In this document: positions 23,602 through 39,600 of the stretch, one piece after another
How the letters are laid out: each line of letters opens with the position of its first letter
Position numbering within the stretch: position 1 is the first letter of the stretch
Assembly (NCBI GenBank): GCA_963729055.1
Contig: CAVSMQ010000005.1
Span: 89,636-129,635, forward strand
Length of the DNA: 40,000 nucleotides
Reading direction: 5' to 3'
From: an uncultured Actinomycetes bacterium
GTDB taxonomy: Bacteria; Actinomycetota; Thermoleophilia; Solirubrobacterales; 70-9
Program-made: the position numbers and the translations under genes
The notes under the pieces: generated by a model
The model's input: only the letters and a program-made list of their open reading frames with translations
Database searches by the model: none
Told to the model about the DNA's origin: nothing

Positions 23602-24035
23602 CCGGCCCGACCTCCGCGGTAAGAGCAACCGGAGGTACAGGTCTCGCGGACGAGAACCTCCTTCAAGCCGGGAAGCGTCGGGTCGAGCCGGTCCCAGATC
23701 CACTTCGCCAGGTTCTCGCTCGTCGGGTTCTCGAGCCCGGGCACGTCGTTCAGGTAATAGTGGTCGAGTTCGGCGTGGAGCGGCTTGAACGCGGCGCTCA
23801 GCTCGGCGAAATCGACGACCCAACCGGTCGATTCACCCACCTCCCCACCGACCCGGATCTCAACCCGGTACGAGTGTCCATGGAGCCGGGCGCACTTGTG
23901 ACCCTCAGGCACGTTCGGCAGCAGGTGGGCCGCCTCGAAAGTGAACTCCTTGAAGATCTCGGCCTTGGTGACTCGCTGCTTCGCCCCGGCCTCCTGCCCG
24001 TTGCCCCTGGCATCGATGATCGCCACCTCGCTCAT
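23598..24035 (-). CDS. queD: 6-carboxy-5,6,7,8-tetrahydropterin synthase
   Basis: '[10 protein letters not shown]', '[13 protein letters not shown]', 'LDHYYLND', 'ENLAKWIW'. ATGA overlap with queE. Confidence 0.9.
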
Positions 24036-24784
24036 ACGCCGCGTTCCTCTCCCCAAGCGATCACGTGCAACTGCGGCAGGACTCTGGCGCGCGCCAAATC
24101 CGGGTCGGCCGCGACTCTCTCGCAGAGCTGGCGGAAACTCGCTCCCACCGCCGCGGGCAGATCAGCCGGCGCCGGGACGGGGGTCCCTGCCGAGAGGTGC
24201 AGATCGGGCTGCGGCCAGCGGCCAGCGACCGCCTTTGCCCATGCGAGGTCCTCGGCGTCGAAGCAGACGATCTTCAACACCGTCCGTTCCCATGCCGTGG
24301 TTTCGGCAGCACGGTGCATGAACTTGTCGAATTGGGCCTCGTGCGCCTCCCCGGCCATCCTCGAGGAGGGCGGCTTCGGCGAGACCGTCAGTCGGTCAAC
24401 GCGACAGAGCCACTCCTTCCACAGCGAGCCCTGCGTCTCGACCGCGACCGCGAGCCCGTCGGCGTGGAGTTGGTCGACCAGCGCGTCCAGTTCGTGCAGG
24501 GCTGGGTTGCCGCCGCTGATCACCACCCACTGCGCGCCGCCGCCGAGCGCCGCCACCCGCGCGGCGATCTGCCCCGCGTCGAGGTGCTCGGCTTCTCGGC
24601 GAACCTCGGCGGGGTCGACTGCGTACATCGTGTCGCACCACGAGCAACGGTAGTCACAGCCGCCGAAACGGATGAAGTAACACGAGCGGCCCGCCTCGGC
24701 ACCCTCACCCTGAATGGTAGGACCGAAGATCTCGACCACGGGGAACGTCTTCGTGGCCCGAGCTTTTTCAGCGACAGTGGCCAC
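24032..24784 (-). CDS. queE: 7-carboxy-7-deazaguanine synthase (radical SAM)
   Basis: '[36 protein letters not shown]', 'VVISGGNP'. Confidence 0.9.
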
Positions 24785-24790
24785 GATTTC

Positions 24791-25498
24791 TCAGGCTCCC
24801 GCTTGCGCTTGGTAGGGAGCGGGGTCGACGAGGCCATTCTCGGCGAATCCCTTCAGGCGCAAATGGCAGGAGTCACATTCACCACACGCCTCGCCCTCCG
24901 GCGTCGGGTCGTAGCAGCTGCGGGTCAACCCGTAGTCGACCCCCAGCGCGATGCCCTTGGTGATGATCTCGGCCTTGGTCAGGTCGATCAGCGGCGTGTG
25001 GATCGTGAGGCGCTTCCCTTCTACACCGCGTTTCGTCGCCAGGTTGGCCATCGCCTCGTAGGCGGCCACATACTCAGGGCGGCAGTCGGGGTAGCCGCTG
25101 TAATCGAGCGAGTTGACACCGATGAAGATGTGGTCGGCCTCGAGCACCTCGGCCCAGGCAAGGGCGAAGGAGAGGAAGACCGTGTTCCTGGCGGGAACGT
25201 AGGTGACCGGAATTCCCTCCGACATCTGGTCGATGTCACGCGCCTTCGGCACCTCGATGTCGTCGGTCAGAGCCGATCCGCCGATCCGGCGGAGGTCGAT
25301 CTCGATCTCGACATGATTGGTGACGCCGGCCGCGGCGATCACCCGCTTCGCCGCCTCGAGCTCGACACCGTGGCGCTGGCCATACCGGAACGTCATCGCG
25401 CCGGCCTCGAATCCTTCCTCAGCCGCGATCGCCAAAGCCGTCGCGGAGTCGAGCCCGCCGCTGACCAGGACCACCGCCTTCTGCGAACCGGCCGTCAC
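24791..25498 (-). CDS. queC: 7-cyano-7-deazaguanine (preQ0) synthase
   Basis: '[13 protein letters not shown]', 'YGQRH', '[12 protein letters not shown]', 'SCYD...[10 protein letters not shown]'. Confidence 0.95.
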
Positions 25499-25734
25499 GT
25501 CGCCTCCGCCTCGGCTTGTGGGACTGCCTCCGGCGTTGACCGACGACTGGCCTCGATGAACTGGCGAACCTCGTTGGGCTCGAACAGGGTGCGGCCCCCG
25601 ACCTTGACTCCGACCAGGTCGCCGGCCCGGCAGAGGCGATAGATGCCGCTCTCGGAGATCCCGAGGTACTCGGCCACCTTCTTTACCGAGAGGAGCGGCT
25701 CCAGGTCGTTCAGGGAGCTTTCAATTGCTGTCAT
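25495..25734 (-). CDS. excisionase-family (MerR-like) helix-turn-helix DNA-binding protein, first gene of the operon
   Basis: '[48 protein letters not shown]'. 4-nt overlap with the queC start. Confidence 0.8.
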
Positions 25735-25765
25735 CGGCGCCCAAGCTAGGCCGCCGATCGGACGC

Positions 25766-25796
25766 GAGGCAGGGCCGACGCTGAGGCAGGGCCGAC
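25766..25796. promoter_or_regulatory. two perfect 14-bp direct repeats (GAGGCAGGGCCGAC, 17-bp period) upstream of the HTH-queC operon; candidate operator
   Basis: Copies at 25766-25779 and 25783-25796, 32-62 bp upstream of the 25734 start, in the divergent intergenic region. Confidence 0.35.
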
Positions 25797-25957
25797 CCTG
25801 CGGCCAGACGAGGATGAAAGAACTTCCCTGCTAACGGGGATAACCAGGCGCCGGAGCCAGGTAGGCGCTACTGCGCTGGAAGGAGCCAGACCCGCTGCTC
25901 GGCGCCCCGACTACGAAACCATTCGACGGTAACAGCGACGGCGTTTAGGTTGGCGCG

Positions 25958-26452
25958 ATGACAGGCAAGCTGAAGCTCGGCAATAGAGGGATCTCTGATC
26001 TCCTCGGCATCTATGTCCAAGTACTCGAGGAGCTCCGCGAGCGCGAAGTGATCCGTAGCGCCAACGCACCCACCGGCGACTACGCGGAGTGGTTGGTACA
26101 GCGGGCGCTCGGCGGCGACTTGCAGCCGAATTCCAACAAGAGCGCCGACCTGATCGTCCGCATGGAGAGGATTGAGATCAAGTCCAGGGTTCTCAGCGAT
26201 CCCGAGAAGTCAGGTGAGCGGCAGCTTTCACCATTTCGCTCCTGGAATTTCGACTGCGCCGTCATCGTCCTCTTTGATCGTCGTTACGACGTCCGGCGGG
26301 CAACCCGGATCAAGGTCTCGGAGCTTAAAGCGGCATCCCGGGAAGACGAATGGGTTTCCGGGAAACGGGTGATCGCACGTGAGGCACTGCTCGATCGCGG
26401 CCTCGATATCACCAAGAAGGTGCGGGAGGCGGCCGCACGGCAAGACGACTGA
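25958..26452 (+). CDS. small PD-(D/E)xK-like (restriction-endonuclease-fold) protein, function unknown
   Basis: 'GDYAEWLVQRALGG...KSADLIVRMERIEIKSR' gives a D...ExK arrangement. Divergent from the Dpd-like operon. Confidence 0.55.
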   Translation: MTGKLKLGNRGISDLLGIYVQVLEELREREVIRSANAPTGDYAEWLVQRALGGDLQPNSNKSADLIVRMERIEIKSRVLSDPEKSGERQLSPFRSWNFDCAVIVLFDRRYDVRRATRIKVSELKAASREDEWVSGKRVIAREALLDRGLDITKKVREAAARQDD

Positions 26453-26531
26453 ACCGAGGCGAGGGAAGAAGCCAGCCTTCGCCTAGCGGGACTAGGCAGG
26501 GGGCGTCGGGGTCGAGCGCTACTTTCGGAGA

Positions 26532-27569
26532 ATGGCGACTGTCATGAAACAGACCGAAGCTAAGGGCCTCACTACGCCCGCGCTGGCTGTCGCCCTCGGG
26601 GTGAACGAAAGCCCAAGCCTCGCCGGCCATGTCGACTGGACTCAGGTCGGCCGGATCTCAGCTCAGACCTCTCTCCGGGCGGCCGGCTTCCAGCGCGCGG
26701 CCTGGGACGATGACCATTTCTGGAACCTCCAGGACGATGCAGCTCTGCGATCGCAATTCTTCGCCATAGGCAACAGCGTCAACTTCCGCTTCTGGAGCCT
26801 GAAAGCGGGGCAGATGCGACCGGCTGGGGGAAAGCTCGACGGGTCCGAGTACCAGGGCGCAATGTACATGTGGAGAGCGCTGCGGCGCGCACTTGACCAA
26901 ACCGGAGGGGACCTGCTCGAGGCGGACTTCCTCGCCGGGCTGGCAGACGCCGACTTCGACCGCATCTTCACCGACGACGACGGCTGGAACCCGCTCGCCC
27001 CTGGGCGCGACGAGCGCATCGCCAACCTCAGGGACCTCGGGGAGCACCTACGGGCCCGCTGGAACGGCGCGTTCTTCAACCTGGTCGAGTCCACGGAAGG
27101 CTCGCTGGTCAAGTTCGCCCACCTCGCGAGCGGCATCCGGGCGTTCGACGATCCAATCTGGAAGCTGACGATGCTTACGGCGATCCTCCACTCGGGCAGT
27201 GGCATCTACCGGTTTGAGGATGAGCCCCTTCCGGCCATCGACTATCACCTGCTCAAGCAGGCGCTGCGGCAGGGCATGGTGCAACCGAGCCCGAACCTAG
27301 CGCAGGAGATCGCCGCCAGCCACATGCTCCGCCCCGAGGATGCACTCGAGTTGCGCCGACTGGCGCTGATCGCCTTCGTCGGCGTCTCCGAGCGGACCGG
27401 ATTGAGCGGCGAGATACTCGACAACAGATACTGGCTCAACCGCGTCAACTGCACCGATCCGGATCCGGTCTGCCTCGACCCCGCAACCGCCGTTCGCTGC
27501 CCCTTCCATGGTGCGTGTAGCCAATTCACTCAATTCGAACGGCCGCTTGAGCTCACCCGTTACTACTAA
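26532..27569 (+). CDS. Qng1/DUF2419-like (queuosine-salvage N-glycosidase family) protein with an extra C-terminal Cys4 insert
   Basis: From memory of human QNG1 (C9orf64): 'NSVNFRFWS' vs 'LNFSFWS', 'YQGAMYMWRALRRALDQ', 'WKLTMLTAIL' vs 'YKRAQILVAD', 'LPAIDYHLLKQALRQGMV' vs 'FADYRLPQVLAHLGAL', 'ILDNRYWLN', terminal '..RYY' vs '..IYY'. Insert 'CTDPDPVCLDPATAVRCPFHGAC'. Confidence 0.7.
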   Translation: MATVMKQTEAKGLTTPALAVALGVNESPSLAGHVDWTQVGRISAQTSLRAAGFQRAAWDDDHFWNLQDDAALRSQFFAIGNSVNFRFWSLKAGQMRPAGGKLDGSEYQGAMYMWRALRRALDQTGGDLLEADFLAGLADADFDRIFTDDDGWNPLAPGRDERIANLRDLGEHLRARWNGAFFNLVESTEGSLVKFAHLASGIRAFDDPIWKLTMLTAILHSGSGIYRFEDEPLPAIDYHLLKQALRQGMVQPSPNLAQEIAASHMLRPEDALELRRLALIAFVGVSERTGLSGEILDNRYWLNRVNCTDPDPVCLDPATAVRCPFHGACSQFTQFERPLELTRYY

Positions 27570-28549
27570 CGCTCGAAGGCCGCCAGAACGTTGATGTCGG
27601 GCTCGGCCTTCAGCCTGCCGACTATGCGCAAGCCGTGCCTGTTCCCGCGCGCCAGCAACTGGTAACCGAAAGTTCCAGTGTCGTACTGACCGCGACCCGC
27701 CAGGTGGAGATGAACGAACTCCCCCAAGAGCGGGATCCGATATGCGATCCATGAGACCTTGCCGTTGTTCACCGCCTCCTCGACCACCTCAAGGGCGATC
27801 TGCCGATCGTAGTGGTCGGCGAACCAGTTCCAGTAGTCGTACCGGGCTTGCGTTGAGGCGGGGTCGGGCCCACTCTGGTATTTCGGCTGGGTTGGCGTAC
27901 CGTCCTTTGCTTCGAGGCGTTCGGCGAACGTCTTGTAGATCGTGACCACGTTGCCCGTTCCGTCCACCTCGAGGGCCGCCGGGATGAACTTCGTGTTCGG
28001 TGGCACCTCGAGCATAATCATCGCCCGAGGAATGCTGCGCGGGTAATCGGGGGCGGCAAGGTCGATCTCTTTGCCCCCAGCGTCGACACAGCGCTCGCCG
28101 GTGACGAATAGCAGGCGGGAGCGCAGCGAAGGCTCGGTCGCGTAGCGCAGCACGAGGCCAAGAAGGCGGCGATAGGGGTTGGCAACCCGGTCCCAATTCG
28201 ACCCCGACGCTTCGCCGCTCCCGCGCTCGTGGCCGACGTTAGCCCCTGCATCGACGAGCGGGGAGAACACTGCTCCGACCGTAAGCTCGGCACCGATCTT
28301 CGTGTTGGCAGAGAACGAGCGGTCGAAGCTCCTCCCGATCTCCTCGTAGTCGGGCTGGAGGACCGCGTCGTAGAAGGCGTCCACCTGTTTGTCGTCGATG
28401 AAGAGCGGGGCGTCGGCGAGCCAGAGCAACTCCTCCGGGAGCTGTTTCGTCGCGCTGGCGCTACCGTCGACAATAACCTCCCCCTTGGGCCGGGCCCGCT
28501 TCGCCTTCCTCTGGTTCCAGCGCTGCTTCAGTCGCTCGAGCCGACCCAT
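27566..28549 (-). CDS. 327-aa hypothetical protein (no family recognised)
   Basis: Long ORF with coding-like composition. Convergent with the Qng1-like gene, with a 4-nt overlap. Confidence 0.65.
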   Translation of the reverse strand: MGRLERLKQRWNQRKAKRARPKGEVIVDGSASATKQLPEELLWLADAPLFIDDKQVDAFYDAVLQPDYEEIGRSFDRSFSANTKIGAELTVGAVFSPLVDAGANVGHERGSGEASGSNWDRVANPYRRLLGLVLRYATEPSLRSRLLFVTGERCVDAGGKEIDLAAPDYPRSIPRAMIMLEVPPNTKFIPAALEVDGTGNVVTIYKTFAERLEAKDGTPTQPKYQSGPDPASTQARYDYWNWFADHYDRQIALEVVEEAVNNGKVSWIAYRIPLLGEFVHLHLAGRGQYDTGTFGYQLLARGNRHGLRIVGRLKAEPDINVLAAFER

Positions 28550-28639: not shown

Positions 28640-28830
28640 GAGAGGCTTCTATCGAACCATTTGGAGACCCGTCCAGGAGCAACGGCGACGGACATCAGAA
28701 CCCACGTGTTCCACAGCCACATCACGCTGCTACGTCATCAGGGCATCGACGACAGCGGCCTCGCGGAGATCGTCGGTCACGGGTAGCCACGAAGCTCGCT
28801 CGATACGCCCATCCAGTGGGACGAGCTTCA
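28640..28830 (+). pseudogene. C-terminal remnant of a tyrosine recombinase
   Basis: 'DIRTHVFHSHITLLRHQGIDDSGLAEIVGHG*' then, shifted, 'SHEARSI' / 'RYAHPV'. This parallels 'DIRPHECRHSYVTNL...VVGHG...LAHYTH' of the integrase at 37.2 kb. It has an internal stop and has lost the box II Arg. Confidence 0.4.
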
Positions 28831-29052: not shown

Positions 29053-29099
29053 TGCGCCCGACCGGATTCGAACCGGCGACCTTCGGCTTGAAAGGCCGA
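29053..29099 (-). other. 3' portion of a tRNA-Glu(UUC)-like gene (anticodon arm to discriminator); not a complete tRNA; probable att-site remnant
   Basis: Minus strand reads TCGGC-CTTTCAA-GCCGA / AGGTC / GCCGG-TTCGAAT-CCGGT / CGGGCGC-A. The 22 nt upstream cannot form a D-arm. A 6-bp hairpin (CACCGC gcgag GCGGTG, 28984-29000) lies downstream in tRNA orientation. Confidence 0.6.
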
Positions 29100-29152
29100 G
29101 GGTCTTTGGCTTGGGAGGCGCGTTTGCCGAGGCGATGTGACTGAGATGAGAC
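29088..29152 (+). repeat. copy A of the island repeat family (core TTGAAAGGCCG + arm with GATGTGACtgaGATGAGAC)
   Basis: Core at 29088-29098 (the anticodon loop/stem of the tRNA fragment). 8-mers at 29134-29141 and 29145-29152, 46 nt from the core as in copy B. 'GGCTTGGGAGG' is shared with B. Confidence 0.7.
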
Positions 29153-29172
29153 CCGCAGGAGCGGGCAGCCGC

Positions 29173-29400
29173 TCAGTGCGTCGCGAGTTCGGGCTTGAGG
29201 ACTCTGGTGCTGCCGTCAGCTGAGACGAGGACGACCGAGAGTCCTTCGTCGGCGGCGCGCTCGATGTCATGGCCGGCCGATGGCGTGTCGGCGTCGATGA
29301 ACGCAGCGCGCTCGGGATAGGGCGAGCGGCCTTCGATCGCAAGATCGATCGCTTCGTCCATCACCTTGGCGGCGGGAGAGCGATTGCTGTCAGCGGTCAT
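29173..29400 (-). CDS. 75-aa hypothetical protein (second gene of a coupled two-gene pair)
   Basis: ATGA overlap with the upstream 103-aa gene. Acidic small protein. Start could be 29412. Confidence 0.5.
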   Translation of the reverse strand: MTADSNRSPAAKVMDEAIDLAIEGRSPYPERAAFIDADTPSAGHDIERAADEGLSVVLVSADGSTRVLKPELATH

Positions 29401-29708
29401 TGCCTTTCCCATCCTTCGATCATCTCGCGGTATCCGCGCTCGACCTCGGAGATCGCGGCGCGCATTCCTTCTCCAAGGGTACCGCCATGGAAAGCGGTTC
29501 CCGGCCCCTTGCCCGTGTTGCGCGTGTATCGGTGCATCTCGTTGTGGCCGTGGGCGGCGTCATAGACGCGAATCGTCTCCATTCCGTTTTCGGTTTCGAG
29601 CAGCAGAACCACCGCGTAGTCGATGACATTGCTGCCCTGCGTGGTGAACTGAACGCGCAATAGAGCTCCCAGGGAGTGGTCGAGAATCCGGCGGTAGCTG
29701 GCGCCCAT
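29397..29708 (-). CDS. 103-aa hypothetical protein (first gene of the pair; His-rich 'VYDAAHGHNEMHRY' motif)
   Basis: ORF 29397..29753, start set at the ATG at 29708. The motif is loosely reminiscent of small TA-type toxins, but no family is assigned. Confidence 0.55.
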   Translation of the reverse strand: MGASYRRILDHSLGALLRVQFTTQGSNVIDYAVVLLLETENGMETIRVYDAAHGHNEMHRYTRNTGKGPGTAFHGGTLGEGMRAAISEVERGYREMIEGWERQ

Positions 29709-29755
29709 GTCCGAGACGATAGATCCATGACCGGCGAGATGTTTTGTCTGCAAAG

Positions 29756-30181
29756 ATGAGCGCCATGGACAAGGCGCCGCGCGTGAGACTCAGTGGGGAC
29801 GAGGAAGGCGACTACGTCGTCCTGCAGCGGCGTCCCGGCGGCGTTCTGCGGATTGCCCCCGAGCGATCGGGCCGGCTACCGGAAGTGGTCACGCTGAAGA
29901 AAACCTCCATCGCGTGTCCGTCCCAGTGGGAGGGCACCCTCGAGGACGGGCGGGTCGTCTATGCCCGCTACCGCCACGGCGAACTGAGCGTCGGCGTCGG
30001 CGATGCCATCGAGGCGGCGGTCCGGAACTCGACATCGAATCAAGCCCTCCATGCAGACCATGTCGGTGACGGACTCGATGGGTTCATGGACTTCGACGAG
30101 CTGAAGATCCACCTTCACGGGCTGTTGGAGTTTCCGGCCGACCTCATCGTTGAGAACGAGTGGCCGCCGGATCAGCACTAA
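29756..30181 (+). CDS. hypothetical protein (~141 aa)
   Basis: ORF 29744..30181, first ATG at 29756. 'CPSQWEGTLEDGRVVYARYRHGELSVGVG'. Divergent from the 103-aa gene. Confidence 0.55.
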   Translation: MSAMDKAPRVRLSGDEEGDYVVLQRRPGGVLRIAPERSGRLPEVVTLKKTSIACPSQWEGTLEDGRVVYARYRHGELSVGVGDAIEAAVRNSTSNQALHADHVGDGLDGFMDFDELKIHLHGLLEFPADLIVENEWPPDQH

Positions 30182-30217
30182 CCGCCGAGCCGCCCAACAG
30201 AGCCATTCTCGGTCAGA

Positions 30218-30282
30218 TTGAAAGGACGTTGGGCGTTGGCTTGGGGAGCGGGACCGCGGCGGCGATGTGACCGGGATGAGAC
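30218..30282 (+). repeat. copy B of the island repeat family
   Basis: 'ATTGAAAGGACG' at 30217-30228, 'GGCTTGGGGAG', 'GATGTGACcggGATGAGAC' at 30264-30282. Lies between the stops of 29756..30181 and the RelE-like gene. Confidence 0.7.
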
Positions 30283-30297
30283 TCCCGCCGCAACGCG

Positions 30298-30558
30298 TCA
30301 GCGATCGTAGGCCCGACCGCGAGGCAAGACACGCAGGACGACGATCACCTGTTTCTCGTCGTCGAAGGTGAAGCGAATACGCCAGTCGCCAACCCGCAAG
30401 CGCCACTGGGCCGAATCGAGCTTACGAATGTCTCCCATACGAGGAGCGACGACGAACCTGTCGAGCGCATCCAGAATGCGGCGCTGCACCGGTCGATCGA
30501 GTCGCTTCAAGTCACGCCACGCCCGCGGCATGATTCGAAGAGACCAGCTCGGTGTCAA
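30298..30558 (-). CDS. RelE/ParE-family type II toxin
   Basis: 'WSLRIMPRAWRDLKRLDRPVQRRILDALDRF...DIRKL...WRLRVGDWRIRFTFDDEKQVIVVLRVLPRGRAY'. TTG start overlapping the antitoxin stop. Confidence 0.85.
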   Translation of the reverse strand: MTPSWSLRIMPRAWRDLKRLDRPVQRRILDALDRFVVAPRMGDIRKLDSAQWRLRVGDWRIRFTFDDEKQVIVVLRVLPRGRAYDR

Positions 30559-30800
30559 TCGAGATCGAGCTCGGAGCGCAACTCGTCGGTGGACATACCT
30601 TCGCCGCGTCGATAGGCATCCAGCGCCTCAGCCGCGCTGGCATCCTCGTCTGCGTTGGAAGGCTCGTCATCAAGCGGAGCAGCCGCAAGGGCATGCAGCA
30701 TCGGGTCGTCGCGGCGTCGCTCGACGATCACCAACGCGGCCTCAGCCTCCTGGTCGGACAGCTCATCGACCAGCTTGTGGAGTCGCTCCTTCGTGGTCAT
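30555..30800 (-). CDS. cognate antitoxin (81 aa, acidic)
   Basis: Start set at 'MTTKERLHKLVDELSDQEAEAALVIVE'. Position and 4-nt overlap with the toxin. The upstream part of ORF 30555..31046 is rejected. Confidence 0.7.
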   Translation of the reverse strand: MTTKERLHKLVDELSDQEAEAALVIVERRRDDPMLHALAAAPLDDEPSNADEDASAAEALDAYRRGEGMSTDELRSELDLD

Positions 30801-30903
30801 GCGCTCATGGTAATGCCGACCAGCGATTAGCTCCTCAAAGCCGTTCAGACCGGGTACGCTGCTCCCCTTTATTCGGTCTTTTTCAAGTGGGGGAGGCTCG
30901 GCG

Positions 30904-32505
30904 ATGGGATTCCTTGCCGAAATGCAGCGGGAAGCGGAGCGGCGCCGGAAAGCGGAAGAACGAGAGCAGCGGCGCGCCCAGCGCGAATATGAAAAATCCC
31001 TGCGAGAGGCTGAACGACAGGCGGCTCGCGACGAGAAGGAACGCAAGAAGCTTTATGCCGAGAGCCGCCTGCGGGAGACGGAGAATCTCAATTCAGCGGT
31101 CGAAAGGAGCATCGACAAACTTGAATCGCTCCTTTCCGCGACTCTCCGCGTCGATGACTTCATCGACCTCAGTGCACTGAAGCAGACCTACGTCGAGCCG
31201 CCATTTGAGCCCGGCTCGCTCGCGCATCCGATTCCGAAGCCGGAGCCAGAGAATGTGCCCGCCCCAAGCACTCTCACTGCCCTGGTGCCTGGCACCAGAG
31301 CTAAGTATGAAGCGGCGATCCAGCAAGCCCAAGAAGCTCATGAGGCGGAGCTTGCCGATTGGCAGCAAGAAGAACAGCGGCGACAAGACGAACTCGGGCT
31401 CGCCCGTTCCGGCCATGAGGAGCGGGTGGCGAAAGAGCGGGAGGAGATCGAGAAAGCCAACGCTCAGATCGACGACTTCGACGCTCGGCTAGAGGCTGCC
31501 GAGCCCTCAGCCATCGTCGATTACCTCGGCATGGTCTTGGACCGCAGCCGCTACCCGGAAGAGTTTCCGAGCGGTCACAAGCTCGCCTACGTTCCTGAGA
31601 GCAAGCAAGTCGTGGTGGAGCACGACCTTCCAAGCTTTGACGTCATCCCGGAGGAGAAGGGATTCAAATACGTCAAATCGCGCGACGAGATCAGCGCGAC
31701 CCCAAGGCCGGAAAGCCAGCGTAAAGCTCTCTACGCAAAGGTCATCTCCGAGGTCTCACTCCGCACCGTGCATGAGCTGTTCGAGGCCGACCGTCGAAAT
31801 CACGTTGAGACGATCGTCTACAACGGAATGGTCGAAAGCATCGATAAGCGCACGGGAACCCCGGCACGAGTGTGCGTTGTGAGTCTTCGGACGACGCAAG
31901 ACGTTTTCGAGGAATTGAACCTGGATCATGTTGACCCGGAAGAGTGCCTCAAGGGACTGAATGCCGGCGTCTCGAAGAAGCCCGCCGAGTTGGCGCCCGT
32001 TCGGCCGGTGGTCGAATTCAAAATGGTTGACGACCGCTTCACGGACGAGACCGATGTCATCTCGGAACTCGATCAACGGCCAAACCTGATGCAGCTCACT
32101 CCGTCGGAGTTTGAGTCCCTGATAACCAACCTATTCGAAAAGATGGGCCTTGAGACCCGCCAAACGCGGCCCTCCCGGGACGGCGGGGTGGACTGCGTCG
32201 CCTGGGACGCCCGTCCGGTGATGGGCGGCAAGGTGGTCATTCAAGCGAAGCGCTACAAGAACACTGTCGGTGTCAGCGCCGTTCGCGACCTCTTCGGGAC
32301 GGTTCACAATGAGGGGGCCGGCAAGGGCATCCTCGTTACGACCAGTGGCTACGGAAAATCGTCCTTCCAATTCGCCGATGGCAAGCCACTAGAGCTGCTG
32401 GACGGCAACAACCTTCTCTATCTACTGCGAGAGCACGCCGGCATCGAAGCGAAAATCGAGCCTCCGGATGACTGGGTCGATCCGGAAGCAGCAGCGACTG
32501 CGTGA
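30904..32505 (+). CDS. restriction endonuclease with C-terminal Mrr-cat (PD-(D/E)xK) domain and long N-terminal coiled coil
   Basis: 'LTPSEFESLITNLFEKMGLETRQTRPSRDGGVDCVAWD...VVIQAKRYKNTVGVSAVRDLFGTVHNEGAGKGILVTTSGY'. RBS-like GGGGGAGG precedes the ATG. Confidence 0.85.
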   Translation: MGFLAEMQREAERRRKAEEREQRRAQREYEKSLREAERQAARDEKERKKLYAESRLRETENLNSAVERSIDKLESLLSATLRVDDFIDLSALKQTYVEPPFEPGSLAHPIPKPEPENVPAPSTLTALVPGTRAKYEAAIQQAQEAHEAELADWQQEEQRRQDELGLARSGHEERVAKEREEIEKANAQIDDFDARLEAAEPSAIVDYLGMVLDRSRYPEEFPSGHKLAYVPESKQVVVEHDLPSFDVIPEEKGFKYVKSRDEISATPRPESQRKALYAKVISEVSLRTVHELFEADRRNHVETIVYNGMVESIDKRTGTPARVCVVSLRTTQDVFEELNLDHVDPEECLKGLNAGVSKKPAELAPVRPVVEFKMVDDRFTDETDVISELDQRPNLMQLTPSEFESLITNLFEKMGLETRQTRPSRDGGVDCVAWDARPVMGGKVVIQAKRYKNTVGVSAVRDLFGTVHNEGAGKGILVTTSGYGKSSFQFADGKPLELLDGNNLLYLLREHAGIEAKIEPPDDWVDPEAAATA

Positions 32506-32551
32506 CTCAGGTGCCTAGCCCGATCGAGTCAACCAGTGGCGCCCGTTCAGC

Positions 32552-32614
32552 TTGAAAGGCCGGCGGTATCGGCGTCAAGAACGGAATCAGGTCGGCGATG
32601 AGACAGGAATGAGA
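32552..32614 (+). repeat. copy C of the island repeat family
   Basis: 'CTTGAAAGGCCG' at 32551-32562 and 'GATGAGACaggAATGAGAC' at 32596-32614. To the left, 'GGCGCCCGTTCAGC' looks like the tRNA 3' end with the T-arm deleted. Confidence 0.65.
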
Positions 32615-32689
32615 CGCATCGAACGAGCGCTAGATCGGCTTATACAAATCTCAAAGGCGTCCGGCTGATCGTTCATATTTTTACCTGAA

Positions 32690-33952
32690 ATGGCTAGCCA
32701 GCCAGTGGATCCGCAGCGGCACCCTGACATTGCTCGCCGTAGCTTGGTCGCCTGGCCCGGCTATCAGTCCGGGGTTAGAGTCGACGAGCTCGATCGGCGC
32801 GTGGTCGGCACCATCGCGAAGCCGCTCTCGCACACGGTTCACGATTCGCTTCAGGTAAGCCGAGCGCTAGCTGCAGGCATGGGGGTTCTACTGCCTGCTC
32901 AAGCTTGGCGCAATCAGTTGCCTCTGGATCATGCAAAGCGGAACGGCGCCTTCCGTCACCTCGGCATTCATCGTCCCGGACTCGTTCTTGATCCCGATGA
33001 GTCGGCACTCGGTGCGGATTTCGCAGATCACTACACCGCCGACCATCTGGAAGCAGAGCTCGGGGCAGGAGCCACCGTCGCGACGACCCCAGCTCATGTA
33101 CTTAGAGAAGAGGGGGGCGTTGGACGTGCGAACGAGCTGCTCCTTACCCGTCTAACGGCTGAAGAGTTCGCCGCTAGGAGTGCTGGCGCCCCGGGACCCT
33201 CCCGACCCGCACACGAGACCCGCGAGCTTTACGCCACCTTGATCGTGGAGGGGTCTCACTTGGTCCAACCTGGGGTCCTTGAAGCTCTTGTGATGGCCTA
33301 CGCAGATGTTGAAGGAGTTTCCGGCTATCTGATCATCGCGGCGAACTGCTCTCAGTCCGGGGTCCAAGTCGCAGCTTTCGCTTCTCTCGCCTTGCTCCTT
33401 CAGAGCGCAACGGACCGTCCAGCGGTGATCTATGGCCTCGGCGATGCGCACCTTGCGGTTCTCGCCAGCGGCGTTGCGGCGACCTGCGCTGGAGTACACG
33501 GAATGTCATTTGAATTTCCTCCCGCCGAGTTCGAAGACCTCGAAGACGAGGAGCGAGAGGATGACGAAGACGAACCTGGGCTAGGCATCCACACTTACCA
33601 TCCAGCGATCCTGGGAAACGTCGGGCGTCTTGGCGCTGAAGGCGAGCCGGCTCGTTTGGCGATCTTCAGCAATCGATCGTGCCACTGCGGCCATCACCGG
33701 CCCGACGTGCCGCCGCGAAAGAAGGGTGAAATCGTTCGCCACAACGCCGATACCGTCGCTGCGGATGCTCGGATCTTCGCCACCGATGCCGTCTCAATAG
33801 CCGAGTCCAAGCTGCTAGCTCGCGCTCAGAACGCTGAACGCATGCGTGCCTTCCTCAAACTGAGCAAGCTCAAGCGTGGATTCTTCTCCGTCGCGCCGAA
33901 GGCGATCCAACTGCGTGGTGAGAGTGATGCCGCCGAAAGTGAAGGCGGCTAG
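32690..33952 (+). CDS. 420-aa hypothetical protein (acidic insert, 'CHCGHH' motif)
   Basis: Long ORF. AT-rich leader. No family recognised. Confidence 0.6.
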   Translation: MASQPVDPQRHPDIARRSLVAWPGYQSGVRVDELDRRVVGTIAKPLSHTVHDSLQVSRALAAGMGVLLPAQAWRNQLPLDHAKRNGAFRHLGIHRPGLVLDPDESALGADFADHYTADHLEAELGAGATVATTPAHVLREEGGVGRANELLLTRLTAEEFAARSAGAPGPSRPAHETRELYATLIVEGSHLVQPGVLEALVMAYADVEGVSGYLIIAANCSQSGVQVAAFASLALLLQSATDRPAVIYGLGDAHLAVLASGVAATCAGVHGMSFEFPPAEFEDLEDEEREDDEDEPGLGIHTYHPAILGNVGRLGAEGEPARLAIFSNRSCHCGHHRPDVPPRKKGEIVRHNADTVAADARIFATDAVSIAESKLLARAQNAERMRAFLKLSKLKRGFFSVAPKAIQLRGESDAAESEGG

Positions 33953-34497
33953 CGGAGGGAAAGTTCGGTAGTGAGCGCCCACTCGCTCATCGTCTGTCCT
34001 GAGAGCACCGCTGCTCGCTCCCAACTTGCCCCGGATCGCAGCAACTCGGGCCTCACTAGCGAACGAAATCCTAGACGAAGGATGCGATCGCTCAGACGCA
34101 TGGGCAGTTTGAACGTCGTGGGGGTCGGCGACGAGTTTGTAATGCGCGGTTTCAGCGCTCGCAAGTAGCCGGCAGTGGCGGGCGCCAGTTGCATCGTCAC
34201 TCTCGTCCGCTCTGCCGAATCGTCAAGAAGTTCAAGCATTGCGCTCATCGAGTCTAGGTTGAACTCGGCCTCGATAAGCGCTCGCTCCACGGTCAGAACC
34301 ACCGCGAGATTGGTATCGAGGCCTGCGGAGGCAGCCGCCTGCGCGATTCGCGCAGTGAGCCCGGGGTCTTCCAATCTCCATGACTCACACCTATCGGCAG
34401 GTCGCGCGTGAAGGAAGCCACGATCCGCGCTCGGACCGGAGTTCGGAAGATCAGGAAGGAGCGTTAGTCGGGCCAAAGTAGAATTAATTTCTACCAT
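33949..34497 (-). CDS. 182-aa hypothetical protein
   Basis: Start set at 'MVEINSTLARL'. C-terminal 'SWERAAVLSGQTMSEWAL' is RHH/antitoxin-like. The upstream part of ORF 33949..34680 is rejected. Confidence 0.45.
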   Translation of the reverse strand: MVEINSTLARLTLLPDLPNSGPSADRGFLHARPADRCESWRLEDPGLTARIAQAAASAGLDTNLAVVLTVERALIEAEFNLDSMSAMLELLDDSAERTRVTMQLAPATAGYLRALKPRITNSSPTPTTFKLPMRLSDRILRLGFRSLVRPELLRSGASWERAAVLSGQTMSEWALTTELSLR

Positions 34498-34843
34498 GGC
34501 CCGCGGCGCAAAGAAGCTGACTTCTCGTGATTGGCTGTTCGGTTCACGTCCCAGGCGACTCGTGCTGCAATACGTTCTCTCCAATGAGCCAGGCCCGGAC
34601 GGTTGGACGAAGACTGCACTGGCGGCGCAGGCGGAACTCCATCCCAAGGGCGGGGTGGATGAGCACGTCCGAGGCCTCATTGCTCTCGACCTTCTCCGAG
34701 AGAGCGAAGGTCGCTATTGGCCCGTCCAACCAAGCCCCGCGCTAGCCAAGAAGCTGAAGGGTCTCCTCCGAGAGCTCGACCACGTTCCCGATGACCGGAT
34801 CTCCACCGAGAGGAGAGACCATGGCCCACAGGCCGCGACGTGA
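34496..34843 (+). CDS. putative winged-helix DNA-binding protein (115 aa)
   Basis: 'RPRRLVLQYVLSNEPGPDGWTKTALAAQAELHPKGGVDEHVRGLIALDLLRESEGRYWP'. Its start codon shares the CCATGG at 34494-34499 with the divergent 182-aa gene. Confidence 0.5.
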   Translation: MARGAKKLTSRDWLFGSRPRRLVLQYVLSNEPGPDGWTKTALAAQAELHPKGGVDEHVRGLIALDLLRESEGRYWPVQPSPALAKKLKGLLRELDHVPDDRISTERRDHGPQAAT

Positions 34844-35049
34844 ATGCCTTACTGCGAGTGACTTGGTCTGGGAGAGCAGAGGCCGTCGAAAGCCCGGAGC
34901 ATGCGATCCCCTTTGAGTAATGGGGGGGGAGAATTTGACTGACTGAGCGATTCTGAGCACTATGCCTTCCCAGAATATGTTTGACTTCTTCACGGCGGGA
35001 CTCATGAATACCGCAGGCTCGCCCCACCACCCAACAACCGCTCGCTCAA

Positions 35050-35412
35050 TTGACGACCGCCATCGCCGCCATGCCTTGCCTTGCTTCCTCGGCCAACTCG
35101 GCGGGAGACACCTTGACCACCCTGCTCAGCGCGGAGGGTCTCGTCTTGGTAGCGATCGGCATCAGCGTCTCGATCGCGGGAGGATCCGCGTTTGGGACGA
35201 AGTGGCTGATCTCACCAGGCTGGCTCGCTGTGATCTCGACCATCTTCCTCACTGCCATGGCGATAGGCGCTGGATTCGCTTGGGTTGGCGCTTGGGCAGG
35301 CTGCCACTGGCCAACCAACCTCACGGATCAGGTCGCCGCCATAGCCCTCGCGGTCGGCGTTGTTGCTCCGCCGGTCCTGTCCTCAATCGTTACGATCAAC
35401 GTCTCGCGCTAG
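35050..35412 (+). CDS. small integral membrane protein (3-4 predicted TM helices)
   Basis: 'GLVLVAIGISVSIAGGSAF', 'WLAVISTIFLTAMAIGAGFAWVGAWAG', 'VAAIALAVGVVAPPVLSSIV'. TTG at 35050 or ATG at 35071. The overlapping frame of ORF 34962..35762 is R-rich junk here. Confidence 0.5.
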   Translation: MTTAIAAMPCLASSANSAGDTLTTLLSAEGLVLVAIGISVSIAGGSAFGTKWLISPGWLAVISTIFLTAMAIGAGFAWVGAWAGCHWPTNLTDQVAAIALAVGVVAPPVLSSIVTINVSR

Positions 35413-35762
35413 TGGCACCGCGAATCCTCTCAGAGCATGAGCGGATCCTCCGCGACGAGTTTGACCTCAAAGGTTGGGTGCAAAAAGTTCCGGAGCGGCG
35501 CTCGCGCTACTTTGAGTGGTGCGGAAGAGCGGTGGATGTCGTCCGAGAAGTCAACGGCGGAGAGGTTCCCGAGCCCGCCACCGTGATCGGGTCCATGCTC
35601 GGCCTCTTGCAGGAAGACGACACCTTTTTCGAGCATGCGGCTAGCCGGAAGAACTCCGAATTTCTCGCAAAAGAGGAGAACTGGTTCCCGCTCCGTCGAG
35701 CCTGCGCTGCACAGATCTATCGGGAATACCTCGTTTCCGTGGAGAAAAGCGAATGGCCATAG
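35412..35762 (+). CDS. 116-aa hypothetical protein
   Basis: GTG at 35412 overlaps the TAG of the membrane gene by 1 nt. Coding-like part of ORF 34962..35762 ('ILSEHERILRDEFDLKGWVQKV...'). Confidence 0.5.
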   Translation: MAPRILSEHERILRDEFDLKGWVQKVPERRSRYFEWCGRAVDVVREVNGGEVPEPATVIGSMLGLLQEDDTFFEHAASRKNSEFLAKEENWFPLRRACAAQIYREYLVSVEKSEWP

Positions 35763-37141
35763 AAAAGCCCATGCGGGTAGTTCGTTCTGAGGATCTGGAG
35801 GCGCGCCTTCGCGACCTCGTCGGTGAGGCAATGGCCGCCGGTCGCGAGGCTAGTGCTGCTGCGACTGCCGCCGGCCAGACGGCCCGCCGCTATGCCAATA
35901 AGCCCGGCGGCGAAGAGGAGCTCCTGAACGGGCTGCGCCAGGCGCTAGAAGACGAAGTTGAGGTAGCCGCCCCAGCCGCAGGTGAGAGTGCAATTGACGA
36001 ATCGGAGGTAGACAGGGAGATCGCGAAGCGGGCTCTCATGCATTTGAAGCTGCCAACGTTGAGGGAAATCGCGGAATCGATGGACCTCCCTAGGTCAGGA
36101 AACTTGGAGGAAGTAATTGATCGCATTGCCCGGGAGCTTCGCTCTGATCCGTACGAGATTGCACGCCTTATTGTCAAGTACGAGACGGAGCCTGCCCCAG
36201 AGCGTCGCTTTGCGTCCCGCATCTTCAATGTTCGCGAGCCCTTGGAAGATCCCGAGCAGCTAAGCCAGAGGATTGATTACCTCGCGAATCGCTACATCCG
36301 GACCGGCATTGCGCGGTGGGTTGTGTTTGAGGATGTGCGAGCGACTCCAGTTCTGTTGTCAATCGATGGAACCTTTCGCTCCTATCGCGCTGACGCAGAA
36401 CGGTTTGACGACGACTATAGGTTGAGGGCCGATCCTCACAGTGCCCCTGCTTCTCTACGGATGTTCAAAGGGGAGAAGTCAGTAGAGATCCGCGCTAAGG
36501 GAGAACTCGAAAGCAAGGCATTTGTGCTCGCCTTGCAGAGAGCAAGTAGCTTCAAATGGGAGAAGAGACTGCCAATCTCCCAGAGCTTGGCGGACGGTGA
36601 GCTGTGGGGGTGGCACCCTTGGAGCATCTTCTTGGTTGACCTTTTGAACGCCCGTTTCCGCAGCTCCAATGTCGAGATCTTCGACATGTTCACGGCTGGC
36701 TTTAGGACCGCCAAAGAAGCATCAGGCCACGAGGATGACCGCCCGGCGGTCCGTTCGGTGAGGTTCCAGGGTCGGCACCTTTTGGACTCGCTCGTGGCAT
36801 GCGACCTGATCGTCAGTGGCCAAGCGCTAGCCGAGCTGGGCATGACTGTGCGATACCGGCACGAATCGGAAACCTATCTACTGCCTCTAACGATCAAATT
36901 GGCGGAAGATCACGCAACCGTCTTGACGAGCTTTGGACTGCACGATCCAGCGATTGCGGGATCCCTCCATCGTGAGATCGTTCAAGGATTGAGGAAGTCT
37001 CTTCGGAACGGGCTCGCGAATGAAGGTGCGCTTATACAACTCGCCGTCCAGATCCGAGAGCGGGCTGAATCGGAGGAAACCCCTGATCATCCGACGATAT
37101 TCGGGCCAGACCCTGTGTCAGGCCAGGAAGTCGGCGACTAG
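35753..37141 (+). CDS. 462-aa hypothetical protein with a SAP/HeH (Rho_N-like) DNA-binding motif
   Basis: 'LMHLKLPTLREIAESMDLPRSGNLEEVIDRIAREL'. The ATG overlaps the upstream stop by 10 nt. The rest is unassigned. Confidence 0.7.
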   Translation: MAIEKPMRVVRSEDLEARLRDLVGEAMAAGREASAAATAAGQTARRYANKPGGEEELLNGLRQALEDEVEVAAPAAGESAIDESEVDREIAKRALMHLKLPTLREIAESMDLPRSGNLEEVIDRIARELRSDPYEIARLIVKYETEPAPERRFASRIFNVREPLEDPEQLSQRIDYLANRYIRTGIARWVVFEDVRATPVLLSIDGTFRSYRADAERFDDDYRLRADPHSAPASLRMFKGEKSVEIRAKGELESKAFVLALQRASSFKWEKRLPISQSLADGELWGWHPWSIFLVDLLNARFRSSNVEIFDMFTAGFRTAKEASGHEDDRPAVRSVRFQGRHLLDSLVACDLIVSGQALAELGMTVRYRHESETYLLPLTIKLAEDHATVLTSFGLHDPAIAGSLHREIVQGLRKSLRNGLANEGALIQLAVQIRERAESEETPDHPTIFGPDPVSGQEVGD

Positions 37142-37144
37142 CTT

Positions 37145-37181
37145 GGATCCAAAATCAGGATCCGCTCGCGTCTAACGAGCG
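37145..37181 (+). terminator. two short hairpins after the 462-aa gene (possible terminator)
   Basis: GGATCC-aaaatca-GGATCC (37145-37163) and CGCTCG-cgtctaa-CGAGCG (37163-37181). No U-tract. Confidence 0.3.
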
Positions 37182-37218
37182 CATCGCGAAACTGGCCGAG
37201 TGTTGAGGCTGGTCGCTG

Positions 37219-38313
37219 CTAGGCGATGAGTCGGCGGATGGCCCCGAAATCACGCCCGGTCGAATGCGTGTAATGAGCGAGCATCGTGGCTAAGCCGTGA
37301 CCAACGACCTTCGACAAGTCAGCATCGTCCACAAGTTTGGTCGCTCTTAGATTGGTGACGTAGCTGTGCCGGCACTCGTGAGGCCGAATGTCTAGGCTCA
37401 GCCGCATCCTGCGTCGGCTTCCAGACGTCGCGATAGAAGGTGCGCTCGCGCCAAAGGCGGCCCCGAGGCGTCGGAAAGAGCAGGTTGCAGTCGGGGCCGT
37501 TGAGGTTGATCTGGGCTTCGAGCATCCAGGCGAGGGTCGCGGGGACAGGGACCACGCGGCCGGCGTCTCCTCGCCGTGGTCGGTCTTGGTGCCCTCGAGG
37601 ATCTGGCCCTCGTGGGCGGTGCGGCGGACTTGGAGGGTCTCGCCGTCGAAGTCTTCGCGGCCGGAGGGGGAGGACCTCGCCTAGGCGCATGCCGGTGTCG
37701 GTGAAGGTGCGGACAAGCGCCTCGTAGCGGCCGGCCGCCTTGGCGAAGCGGTGCATTTCCTCGAAGCTGAAGACGCGGATCGGGCGGCGCTTCTTCGTGG
37801 CCCGCGGGTCGTTGGCGCGGATGCGGACGCCCTTGAAGGGGTTGAGGTCGCAGACTTCGTCGGTGATCGCGTCCTCGGCCATTGCCGAGAGGGCGCGGAG
37901 GATGCCGACGGCGCCGGTGGTGGCTCGACCTTCGGTCCTCAGCATGTGGTCGACCAGGGCGAGGGCGTGGCGGCGGCGCAGTTCGCGAAGGGGCCAGTCC
38001 TTCAAGGGGATGCCCTCGACCTCGACGTCGGCGACGCGGCTGATGCGGTGCTCGTTGGTGGCGTTGGTCCGCTCGGAGCGAGGGTGGCGGTCGGTCCAGG
38101 TGGCGAAGTAGTCGCCGAGGGTGTCGGGCCGATCGGAGAGGCCGTAGGCCTCGTCGATCGCCCGCTGGGCTTCGCCTTGCGGGCGAAGGTGCCTTTGCCG
38201 CGGTTCCAGGTCGGTTTGGCGATGCGGCGTTTTCCGTCGCGGCCGGTGTAGCGGGCAAGCCACACGACCTTGCCCGACGGGTTGCGGCGTTTGGTGGGCG
38301 ACTCGCGTCTCAT
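37219..38313 (-). pseudogene. tyrosine recombinase/integrase with at least four frameshifts
   Basis: 'MRRESPTKRRNPSGKVVWLARYTGRDGKRRIAKPTWNRGKGTFARK' | 'GEAQRAIDEAYG...TDTGMRLGEVLPLR' | 'REDFDGETLQVRRTAHEGQILEGTKTDHGEETP' | 'GRVVPVPATLAWMLEAQ...FYRDVWKPTQDAA' | 'LDIRPHECRHSYVTNL...VVGHG...LAHYTH'. Shifts near 38175, 37655, 37560 and 37400. Confidence 0.8.
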
Positions 38314-38504
38314 GCCGTCTCGTCCCTGTGTCGGGCGAGGAAGTCCTCGACATCGTCGGGGTCGATCCGGCGAGAGGCGCCGAGCTTGTAGCTGGGCAGC
38401 TCGCCGCGCCTGATCCAATTGCGGATGGTCCGATCCGAGACGGCGAGATAGGCGGCGAGGGTGCGCTCGGTGAAGAAGCTCGCGGAGGCGCGTTTCCGTT
38501 GCAT
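38310..38504 (-). CDS. excisionase-family HTH protein (Xis-like)
   Basis: 'FFTERTLAAYLAVSDRTIRNWIRRGELPSYKLGASRRIDPDDVEDFL'. ATGA overlap with the integrase start. AAGGGG RBS before the ATG at 38504. Confidence 0.8.
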   Translation of the reverse strand: MQRKRASASFFTERTLAAYLAVSDRTIRNWIRRGELPSYKLGASRRIDPDDVEDFLARHRDETA

Positions 38505-38703
38505 GCCCCTTATGTCCCGCGAGCGGGCCAATTGCACCGGGTGGGAACAGAATTATTCGCGAGCGCATTGACCTTCGGCCGCAATTCGCCGGGCGACCGT
38601 ACGAGCCGACCGCGCGGCGAAGCCGCGCCAAAATCGGCGAGCGGTCGCCCGGCGACGGAGCGCCTTCGAGGCTTTCTTGAATTGAGCATCAAGAAAGTGC
38701 GGC

Positions 38704-39186: not shown

Positions 39187-39194
39187 CGCCGAGC

Positions 39195-39490: not shown

Positions 39491-39586
39491 GAGGAGCGTC
39501 GCTCTCCTTGTGGTCAGGCCCTCGGTTGGCGTGTCCGCGCCGGCCGGGGGCCGCTTTTTCAATGAACGCCGAGGGTAGCACGGCTA

Positions 39587-39600
39587 AGGGATATATCCCT
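39587..39600. promoter_or_regulatory. perfect 14-bp palindrome AGGGATATATCCCT in the divergent intergenic region; candidate operator
   Basis: Read directly. Lies between the pseudogene pair 39195..39490 (-) and 39652..39886 (+). Confidence 0.4.

Follow-up and report, generated by a model that had tools for sequence, protein, structure and literature searches.

Repeat units delimiting a putative tandem array of integrative modules at a tRNA-like target in Solirubrobacterales

Introduction

Actinobacterial elements and phages such as pSAM2 and mycobacteriophage L5 feature lambda-type attP/attB systems that target the anticodon loops of tRNA genes. A related organization is described here in a 40,000-nucleotide (nt) stretch of DNA (the window; 65% G+C) from an uncultured actinobacterium of the order Solirubrobacterales (GenBank assembly GCA_963729055.1, contig CAVSMQ010000005.1, positions 89,636 to 129,635), in which three copies of a 77-nt repeat unit, denominated A, B and C, delimit small modules next to a tyrosine integrase gene. 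Very probably these units are attL/attR/attP-type junctions, and the integrative modules between them form a tandem array assembled by a family of lambda-type tyrosine integrases from Solirubrobacterales. These integrases would recombine DNA within the anticodon loop (7 nt, TTGAAAG on the + strand) of a tRNA-like gene on the chromosome. In common with pSAM2 and L5, the family has an anticodon-stem inverted repeat around a 7-nt overlap, a copy of a tRNA 3' half in the element, repeated arm sites on both arms, a xis gene beside int and a predicted attP of about 250 bp. In contrast, its GATGNGAC arm sites and GTTCCGG repeats are family-specific, int is located about 1.7-2 kb away from the tRNA with a regulatory module in between, and the family is known from sequence.

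Islands built by successive insertions at one target have been reported in other bacteria. The cis-mobilizable elements (CIMEs) of ICESt1-related islands lack an integrase and are flanked on both sides by att sites; together with an element that does encode an integrase they form a tandem at the 3' part of a tRNA-type target (PMC5704250). The same tandem accretion of integrase-less, att-flanked segments is observed here, but no conjugation module is seen in the integrase element, modules are much smaller (0.5-4 kb), many of them share a dedicated end (B-type) that has no tRNA copy and is conserved across genomes, and the host order is one of uncultured soil actinobacteria. Tycheposons of Prochlorococcus are tyrosine-recombinase elements located at specific tRNAs and flanked by partial tRNAs; new integrations push older elements inward to the island, where fragmented integrases and partial tRNAs remain, and the cargo is adaptive or defensive (bioRxiv 10.1101/2020.12.28.424599). 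Stacking at a tRNA, partial tRNAs and integrase fragments recur in the present family, a likeness of layout. The present family differs in that no replication module (primase/helicase) is seen in the element, and in that the target is a single non-canonical tRNA-like gene (tRNA-Arg in a sister lineage), with a presumed anticodon-loop crossover and long lambda-type arms. In Dehalococcoides, tandem genomic islands are reported to integrate site-specifically at ssrA (PMC3146451); site-specific integration of cargo at one small-RNA gene is the same, and target, host and integrase differ. Integron arrays are alike in outcome, being rows of small, mostly single-operon, toxin-antitoxin-rich modules, each bounded by one conserved recombination site. 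The array is not a member of this group, as IntI and the attI/attC architecture are missing, nothing points to folded-strand sites, and genes are found in both orientations.

No published description of this integrative-element family was found. It is an undescribed instance of a known island-building mode, tandem accretion with integrase-less modules, made distinctive by the very small size of the modules, their recurrence across genomes, the dedicated end and the non-canonical tRNA-like target. The family is abundant in soil Solirubrobacterales, more than 1400 integrase homologues being present in public data, and laying out the anatomy of its att sites makes island boundaries predictable in genomes that are largely uncultured.

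Organization of the repeat unit

Units A (29077-29152), B (30209-30282) and C (32544-32615) are copies of one 77-nt sequence, and all lie on the + strand. Mean column identity in the three-way alignment is 75%. The repeat finder pairs A and B (76% identity across 70 nt) and links all three over the final 37 nt. A profile built from 32 copies, 29 of which come from other genomes, detects each of them (nhmmer E values of 3e-20 for A, 1e-18 for B and 1e-12 for C). Alignment, repeat finder and profile scores bear out the three copies in the same orientation reported in a preliminary description of this DNA; the end of copy C, placed there at 32614, is corrected to 32615.

In each unit a TTGAAAG core is found within an imperfect inverted repeat, and is followed by two GATGNGAC 8-mers 11 bp apart. 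The TTGAAAGG core starts at 29088 (A), 30218 (B) and 32552 (C), and the first 8-mer starts 46, 46 and 45 nt further on, in agreement with the earlier claim of two 8-mers spaced 11 bp start to start and located 44-46 nt beyond the core. In A, the inverted repeat CCTTCGGC / TTGAAAG / GCCGAGGG extends over 29080-29102, the overlap region is an anticodon loop (29088-29094), and the 8-mers are at 29134-29141 and 29145-29152. Unit B, which spans 30195-30282 when its left arm is included (CAGAGCCATTCTCGGTCAGA at 30198-30217), has the core at 30218-30225 and the 8-mers at 30264-30271 and 30275-30282. The corresponding positions in C, which spans 32531-32615 with its left arm, are 32552-32559 for the core and 32597-32604 and 32608-32615 for the 8-mers.

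Conservation along the unit is highest at the core TTGAAAGG, at both 8-mers and in parts of the flanking half-sites, and the middle is variable. A GGC(T)TGGG block had been attributed to every copy; the GGCTTGGG block is carried only by A and B, and sits in this variable middle. Among 62 units TTGAAAG is nearly invariant, flanked by half-sites CCTTCGGC and GNCGAAGG, and 64% of cells pair across the half-sites. The inverted half-sites around the 7-nt overlap are presumed to be core-type sites of the integrase.

A chance origin of the 8-mer doublets was checked. With up to two mismatches allowed, 0.16 occurrences of the motif GATGNGAC-N3-RATGAGAC are expected in the window and six are observed, a number that none of 100 shuffled sequences reaches. 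All matches are on the + strand, and correspond to the three units, to positions 5489-5507 and to positions 39896-39914, counted in two overlapping registers. Single 8-mers are not enriched in the window; only the doublet is.

The three units differ in their left arms. That of A is a tRNA 3' portion, described below. The left arm of C resembles a tRNA 3' half minus the T arm, GGCGCCCG being joined to TTCAGC (the deletion is read by eye). The left arm of B fits the consensus ccGCTCTnnAGAGCCAaTCTCCgTCrGA, which is kept in at least 15 junctions of other genomes. Because this left flank recurs, conserved, in units of other genomes, B is set apart as a class of its own; by sequence, it is a conserved junction class whose left arm has no tRNA copy, and not a more degenerate copy of the repeat as formerly proposed.

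The displaced tRNA 3' portion and an older integrase remnant

The left arm of junction A (29053-29099, - strand) consists of the anticodon arm (UUC), variable loop, T arm, acceptor 3' strand and discriminator of a tRNA. The Rfam tRNA model matches 29053-29119(-) at 29.4 bits, the threshold being 29, and the whole score comes from the 3' half. In this alignment anticodon arm, variable loop, T arm and acceptor 3' strand are perfect, the D arm is absent, and two of the seven acceptor pairs are broken. ARAGORN identifies no tRNA in the 40,000-nt window. As the 3' parts are perfect, the D arm is absent and no ARAGORN call is obtained, the sequence is regarded as a tRNA 3' portion only; a functional tRNA-Glu at 29053-29119 was rejected on the lack of an ARAGORN call and of a D arm and on the broken acceptor pairs. 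The 3' portion of a tRNA-Glu(UUC) previously recognized at A is accordingly a 3' fragment with a UUC anticodon and without a 5' half, but does not derive from a canonical tRNA-Glu: it falls in the same sequence class as the 3' half of a 96-nt tRNA-like gene that is intact in related loci.

To the left of the fragment, at 28679-28830(+), tblastn reveals the C-terminal remnant of a second, diverged tyrosine integrase, comprising box II and the catalytic-tyrosine region and interrupted by a stop or frameshift. The remnant is 51% identical to residues 304-338 of the integrase of a related locus, L065 (related loci are denoted by L numbers), and its peptide is 47-57% identical to the C-termini of about 70 integrases of the family. 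It points towards the tRNA fragment, and ends 220 nt left of it. For this reason the tRNA half of A is probably the copy carried by another element, and not the original chromosomal end; the arrangement suggests an older element with another layout. Two AAAGGGACC repeats, 12 bp apart, are found between remnant and fragment (28911 and 28923). A second AAAGGGACC doublet, as a possible arm repeat of the older element, was searched for and none was found.

A tRNA-like gene as chromosomal target

A 96-nt tRNA-like gene is found upstream of int in 30 related loci, in most of them about 1.7-2 kb away (for example L065:8264-8359). It has a UUC anticodon in the loop CTTTCAA and a body like that of tRNA-Arg(ACG), and it scores 65.6 bits on the Rfam tRNA model with a 25-nt insertion in the D loop. 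The insertion forms a hairpin of 6-7 bp with a UNCG-like loop, and compensatory changes are found among nine sequence variants. The gene is flanked in at least 19 loci by PrmC, aspartyl-tRNA synthetase and a short-chain dehydrogenase (adh_short), and this conserved synteny marks it as chromosomal. No published description of a tRNA with a comparable D-loop hairpin was found. A target that combines a structurally supported D-loop hairpin, a Glu anticodon and an Arg-like body is an oddity that deserves a study of its own.

Sister integrases, about 80-84% identical, sit at the canonical tRNA-Arg(ACG), with TTCGTAG as core and the same arm layout. The tRNA-like gene may have diverged from tRNA-Arg(ACG), and the TTGAAAG and TTCGTAG lineages form a natural pair for studying a switch of att specificity. 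Sister-lineage loci at tRNA-Arg(ACG) include L066, L067, L031, L124 and others.

The DNA between this gene and the regulatory genes, called here the tRNA-side arm, was compared in 41 loci. A GCAGAGCC motif is found near +37 from the tRNA 3' end; one to four GTTCCGG-type repeats follow near +72, +92 and +102 (in a few loci none matched); and the 8-mer doublet is at +119 in 38 of the 41. The final 105 nt of the window (39896-40000, +) correspond to this arm position for position, with the same order and spacing of motifs: a doublet GATGTGAC-CAG-GATGTGAC at 39896-39914, CCGGAAC-type repeats at 39924-39930 and 39954-39960, and GGCTCTAC at 39988-39995. This match places the tRNA 3' end near 40033-40034, and the 96-nt gene should lie at about 40034-40129(-), some 34 nt past the right end of the window. 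The array would hence be bracketed by the displaced tRNA 3' part inside the window at 29053-29099 and by the intact gene predicted just outside. Intact gene and displaced 3' part are seen together in related loci, for example in L065, L088 and L140.

The 8-mer doublet is found on both arms, in the 77-nt unit and at +119 on the tRNA side, and this fits arm-type sites. The arm-type recombinase sites proposed in the preliminary description fit the data well, the more so as the integrase has an N-terminal domain placed, according to structure prediction, as that of lambda Int; the 8-mers are presumed to be arm-type sites of the integrase.

Linkage of the units to the integrase family

The pattern GGCGATGNGACNNNRATGAGAC was scanned for in one genome per species. 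The scan returned 63 loci, a number not far from the approximately 35 chance matches that were estimated by hand. About 27 of the 63 are metagenome-assembled genomes (MAGs) of Solirubrobacterales or 'Actinomycetes', and each of these hosts a whole 77-nt unit, not merely the doublet; some carry two units 2-3 kb apart. The left flanks of the units in the MAG loci fall into three classes: a tRNA 3' half as in A, a truncated half, or a conserved non-tRNA sequence as in B.

The unit profile was also used to search 83 integrase-centred metagenome loci. It identified 55 units in 34 of these, with one to three units per array. Relative to int, every one of the 55 is on the opposite strand and 54 are downstream. 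A genome-wide dispersed repeat unrelated to islands had been envisaged as the finding that would overturn the interpretation; the units of the 34 loci are instead confined to one strand and, with a single exception, to one side of int. In L065 the order is tRNA-like gene, tRNA-side arm, XRE gene, helix-turn-helix (HTH) gene, xis, int, cargo, B-type unit, PemK toxin-antitoxin pair, A-type unit with displaced tRNA 3' half, and other DNA. Repeated integration at one anticodon-loop att site, as first suggested for the window, is supported, and is displayed directly in related loci such as L065.

The integrase-bearing element

The DNA to the right of C (32616-40000) matches the layout of L065-type loci, and the element extends beyond the window. 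Five genes without database matches come first, followed by an integrase gene and a HTH_17 gene on the minus strand, small HTH genes and an XRE gene. Cargo genes at 32690-33952(+), 33949-34680(-), 34496-34843(+) and 35753-37141(+) have no Pfam or PADLOC match.

The tyrosine integrase gene (37219-38313, -) is frameshifted in this assembly, and was read in three frames. The reconstructed protein matches PF00589 and is 89% identical to intact homologues of 363 amino acids (aa). Homologues number 1402 at E<=1e-30; the best 120 exceed 80% identity, measure about 363 aa, and several are labelled Solirubrobacterales. L001, an 8-kb Logan short-read contig from another sample, is 99.6% identical to 29526-37712 of the window. 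Relative to this contig the window has three indels within 37385-37660, with more frame changes upstream, and the L001 frame is open where the three indels are found, and over the last 163 codons. Since a nearly identical sequence has an open frame, the frameshifts may reflect either decay or assembly errors. Identity to L001 falls from about 100% to about 90% from 37363 onwards, as if the two assemblies held different integrase alleles or paralogues had been collapsed in one of them.

The structure model of the integrase is poor as a whole (mean predicted local distance difference test, pLDDT, 61); its first 60 residues have pLDDT values of 76-89, and form four strands and a helix. Foldseek ranks chains of Tn1549 Int and lambda Int first, with alignments of about 390 columns. 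In the model, the N-terminal domain occupies the position of the arm-binding domain of lambda Int, and would bind the 8-mers.

An excisionase-like HTH_17 gene (38310-38537, -; Pfam 2.5e-14) is located directly upstream of int, and is 75% identical to the xis of L065. An XRE-family regulator (39652-39886, +), recognized by tblastn with the XRE gene of L065 in two frames, has a frameshift near 39835 and ends ten bases before the 39896 doublet. Xis or another factor may bind the GTTCCGG repeats.

Integrase-less modules

Modules 1 and 2 keep units on both sides (A/B and B/C, respectively), and encode only toxin-antitoxin, restriction and uncharacterized proteins. Module 1 (29153-30208) measures 1.1 kb and, according to Pfam searches, has no integrase. 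It contains genes for a 79-aa protein (29173-29412, -), a DUF7718 protein (29397-29753, -) and a 145-aa protein (29744-30181, +). Module 2 (30283-32543; 2.3 kb) similarly lacks an integrase, and encodes a ParE toxin (30298-30558, -), its antitoxin (30555-30803, -) and a type IV methyl-directed restriction enzyme of the Mrr_cat type (30904-32505, +; PADLOC mREase_IV, E=1.4e-108).

Across loci, inter-unit stretches vary from 0.48 to 4.1 kb. Their genes include three PIN toxins, PemK, ParE, HepT/MNT and Phd antitoxins, two Mrr nucleases, a NERD nuclease, three AAA_14/DUF4143 ATPases and two glyoxalases. Genes of modules 1 and 2 recur in other loci. The 79-aa/DUF7718 pair adjoins the 8-mer arm of a unit in nine of them, with 76-87% nucleotide identity and protein identity up to 97%; in L102 the pair makes up a stand-alone module of 667 nt core to core. 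The 145-aa gene is again found directly upstream of units in L145, L051 and L073, and the ParE/antitoxin pair in L075, L037, L023, L088 and L045. The order of module genes varies between genomes.

Shared DNA between the window and other loci begins at the TTGAAAGG core in the comparison with L037, which is what a junction would predict, and also in those with L145 and L023. With L102, L087, L123, L081, L128 and L104, homology starts inside the right arm near the 8-mers, or beyond the arm.

A model for the array

In the proposed model, each junction would owe its left arm to the end of the left-hand module, which for A would be a copy of a tRNA 3' half, for B the conserved short B-type end and for C a tRNA copy that has lost its T arm. 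The right arm, a conserved 58-nt stretch ending in the GATGNGAC doublet, would be part of the right-hand module. The window would accordingly read, from left to right, as a decayed element with an integrase remnant, A, module 1, B, module 2, C, a 7.4-kb element (cargo, int, xis, regulators), the tRNA-side arm with the 8-mers at 39896, and the tRNA-like gene past 40000. The circular form of an element would carry left arm, core and right arm; that of the integrase element would have a doublet on each arm of an attP spanning about 250 bp, a lambda-type design. The integrase would bind the core half-sites, bridge to the 8-mers through its N-terminal domain, and exchange strands within the 7-nt loop sequence. 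Elements that carry a tRNA 3' half in the left arm would restore the gene on entry, and push older residents outwards. As a B-type end cannot restore the tRNA, B-type modules would need an existing junction to enter. This fits their place, distal to the integrase element and never abutting the tRNA 5' half.

Whether integrase-less modules are moved in trans by the resident integrase, and are not only dead remnants, is evenly poised; that identical cargo turns up in differently composed arrays speaks indirectly for mobilization by a neighbouring element. Going further, the modules could be a true gene-cassette system, in which units of 0.5-4 kb, each with its own site of about 105 bp (B-type end, core and 8-mer arm), are captured and reshuffled in trans by a lambda-type integrase at a tRNA-like landing pad; this would be an integron-like platform arisen independently in Actinomycetota, and is put forward as a tentative idea, less likely than not. 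That small modules of toxin-antitoxin and restriction genes have a dedicated end in common invites one to ask if an integron-like economy of cassettes can be sustained by lambda-type integrases.

Several points weigh against the array model as a whole. Where loci have cargo in common, the breakpoints of homology do not always coincide with the core, and several fall inside the right arm near the 8-mers; breakpoints inside the 8-mer arm imply that homologous recombination between units must also shape the arrays. Integrase binding, directionality and movement in trans are deduced from sequence. The intact tRNA-like gene lies outside the window, at a position predicted from alignment. The window integrase is frameshifted, which could point to a true pseudogene or to an artefact of assembly. 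No boundary could be set at the distal (left) end of the array, and the doublet at 5489 has no surrounding unit.

Alternative interpretations

The small modules might be dead wreckage of full elements from which int was deleted; vertical descent, combined with homologous recombination or gene conversion between 77-nt units, would then account for their recurrence and shuffling. The left arm of C, which looks like an internally deleted tRNA copy, the integrase remnant left of A, the frameshifted resident integrase and the several cargo-homology breakpoints found in the right arm instead of the core are all in line with such an origin, and decayed att-flanked elements such as CIMEs are the usual outcome in the literature (PMC5704250). 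Independent decay, however, is not expected to yield a B-type end of about 28 nt conserved in at least 15 junctions of different genomes. The 79-aa/DUF7718 proteins, moreover, are up to 97% identical across metagenomes while their neighbours differ, and form the stand-alone 667-nt module; and homology starts at the core in three comparisons. An origin of the modules by decay is rather unlikely on this evidence.

Interpretations that leave recombination at a tRNA aside have far less in their favour. Direct repeats one helical turn apart are typical of winged-helix regulators, and the 8-mers spaced by 11 bp could be read as the operator of a transcription factor, either an OmpR/PhoB-type regulator or the XRE/HTH proteins of the element, unrelated to recombination. 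The elements do encode two or three HTH proteins, and the doublet at 5489 stands alone; yet the doublets of A and B do not precede a gene, but have the unit on one side and the 3' end of a convergent gene on the other, and the doublet is at fixed distance from the core, and from the tRNA in the other arm, in a two-arm layout of about 250 bp like that of a lambda-type attP. An operator is accordingly very improbable. Still less credit is given to the idea that the unit is a structured RNA, or a tRNA-derived dispersed repeat akin to short interspersed elements or miniature inverted-repeat transposable elements, to small RNAs or to 3' untranslated region elements, with functional hairpins. In its favour, the unit can be drawn with several hairpins, A aligns at threshold to the full tRNA model of Rfam, and ARAGORN calls the unit of L063 a tRNA-Glu. 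Against this, four candidate helices pair in the 62-sequence alignment like column-shuffled controls (71.4% vs 70.7%, 73.1% vs 71.3%), so that a conserved fold of the repeat as single-stranded DNA or RNA, which the preliminary description had proposed to look for, was not found; no Rfam family reaches threshold on 14 loci, and units are strictly on one side and strand of one integrase family. Promoter and terminator signals in the unit are not above chance. The right arm of the unit was also considered as a real tRNA 5' half, and rejected: the ARAGORN calls in L063 and L031 have no Rfam backing, and the anticodon stem is mismatched at the junction. Modules of 0.5-4 kb, toxin-antitoxin-rich cargo and one site per module recall chromosomal integron arrays, in which the units would be attC-type sites recombined as folded single strands and the modules gene cassettes. 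This last interpretation is practically discounted, as there is no IntI-type integrase, the resident enzyme being closest in fold to Tn1549 and lambda Int; the units have no R''/L''-L'/R' (GTTRRRY) architecture and no structural covariation above shuffles; genes are in both orientations; and the anchor is a tRNA-like gene, not attI. Identity of the unit with an integron attC was rejected on site architecture and integrase type.

Other features of the window

The isolated doublet at 5489-5507(+), GATGCGAC-CGA-GATGAGAC, matches the unit profile in the doublet only, and has neither core nor unit. It is found 57 nt after a gene weakly similar to type IV restriction enzymes (PADLOC). About 80 nt beyond it there is a GAGCCATTCTCG stretch resembling a B-type arm. 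The site was considered as a decayed 'Mrr gene plus unit C', and the hypothesis was rejected, since proteins and flanks share only the doublet.

A second copy of the regulatory pair of the element is located at 1339-2021. It consists of a small gene (1366-1587, -) and an XRE gene (1720-1953) 57% identical to the XRE gene of L065, with a degenerate doublet GGTGCGACCGAGTAGCGCA after the latter, at about 2003-2021. Neither an integrase nor a tRNA is found beside this pair in the window.

At 16103-16120, where G+C falls from 0.73 to 0.64, the sequence CGGCGGATTGAAAGGCCG is similar to a B-type core. The TTGAAAGG match at 16110 is not claimed as a junction, as it is inside the last codons of an open reading frame and one match of this kind is expected by chance. 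The region directly left of the array (16138-28549), lower in G+C than 13-16 kb, hosts a Dpd-like 7-deazaguanine DNA-modification cluster. This encodes DndB-like and TGT-like proteins, FolE2, a radical-SAM QueE-like protein, QueC, a Q-salvage-like protein, a UvrD-type helicase and a PD-(D/E)XK nuclease.

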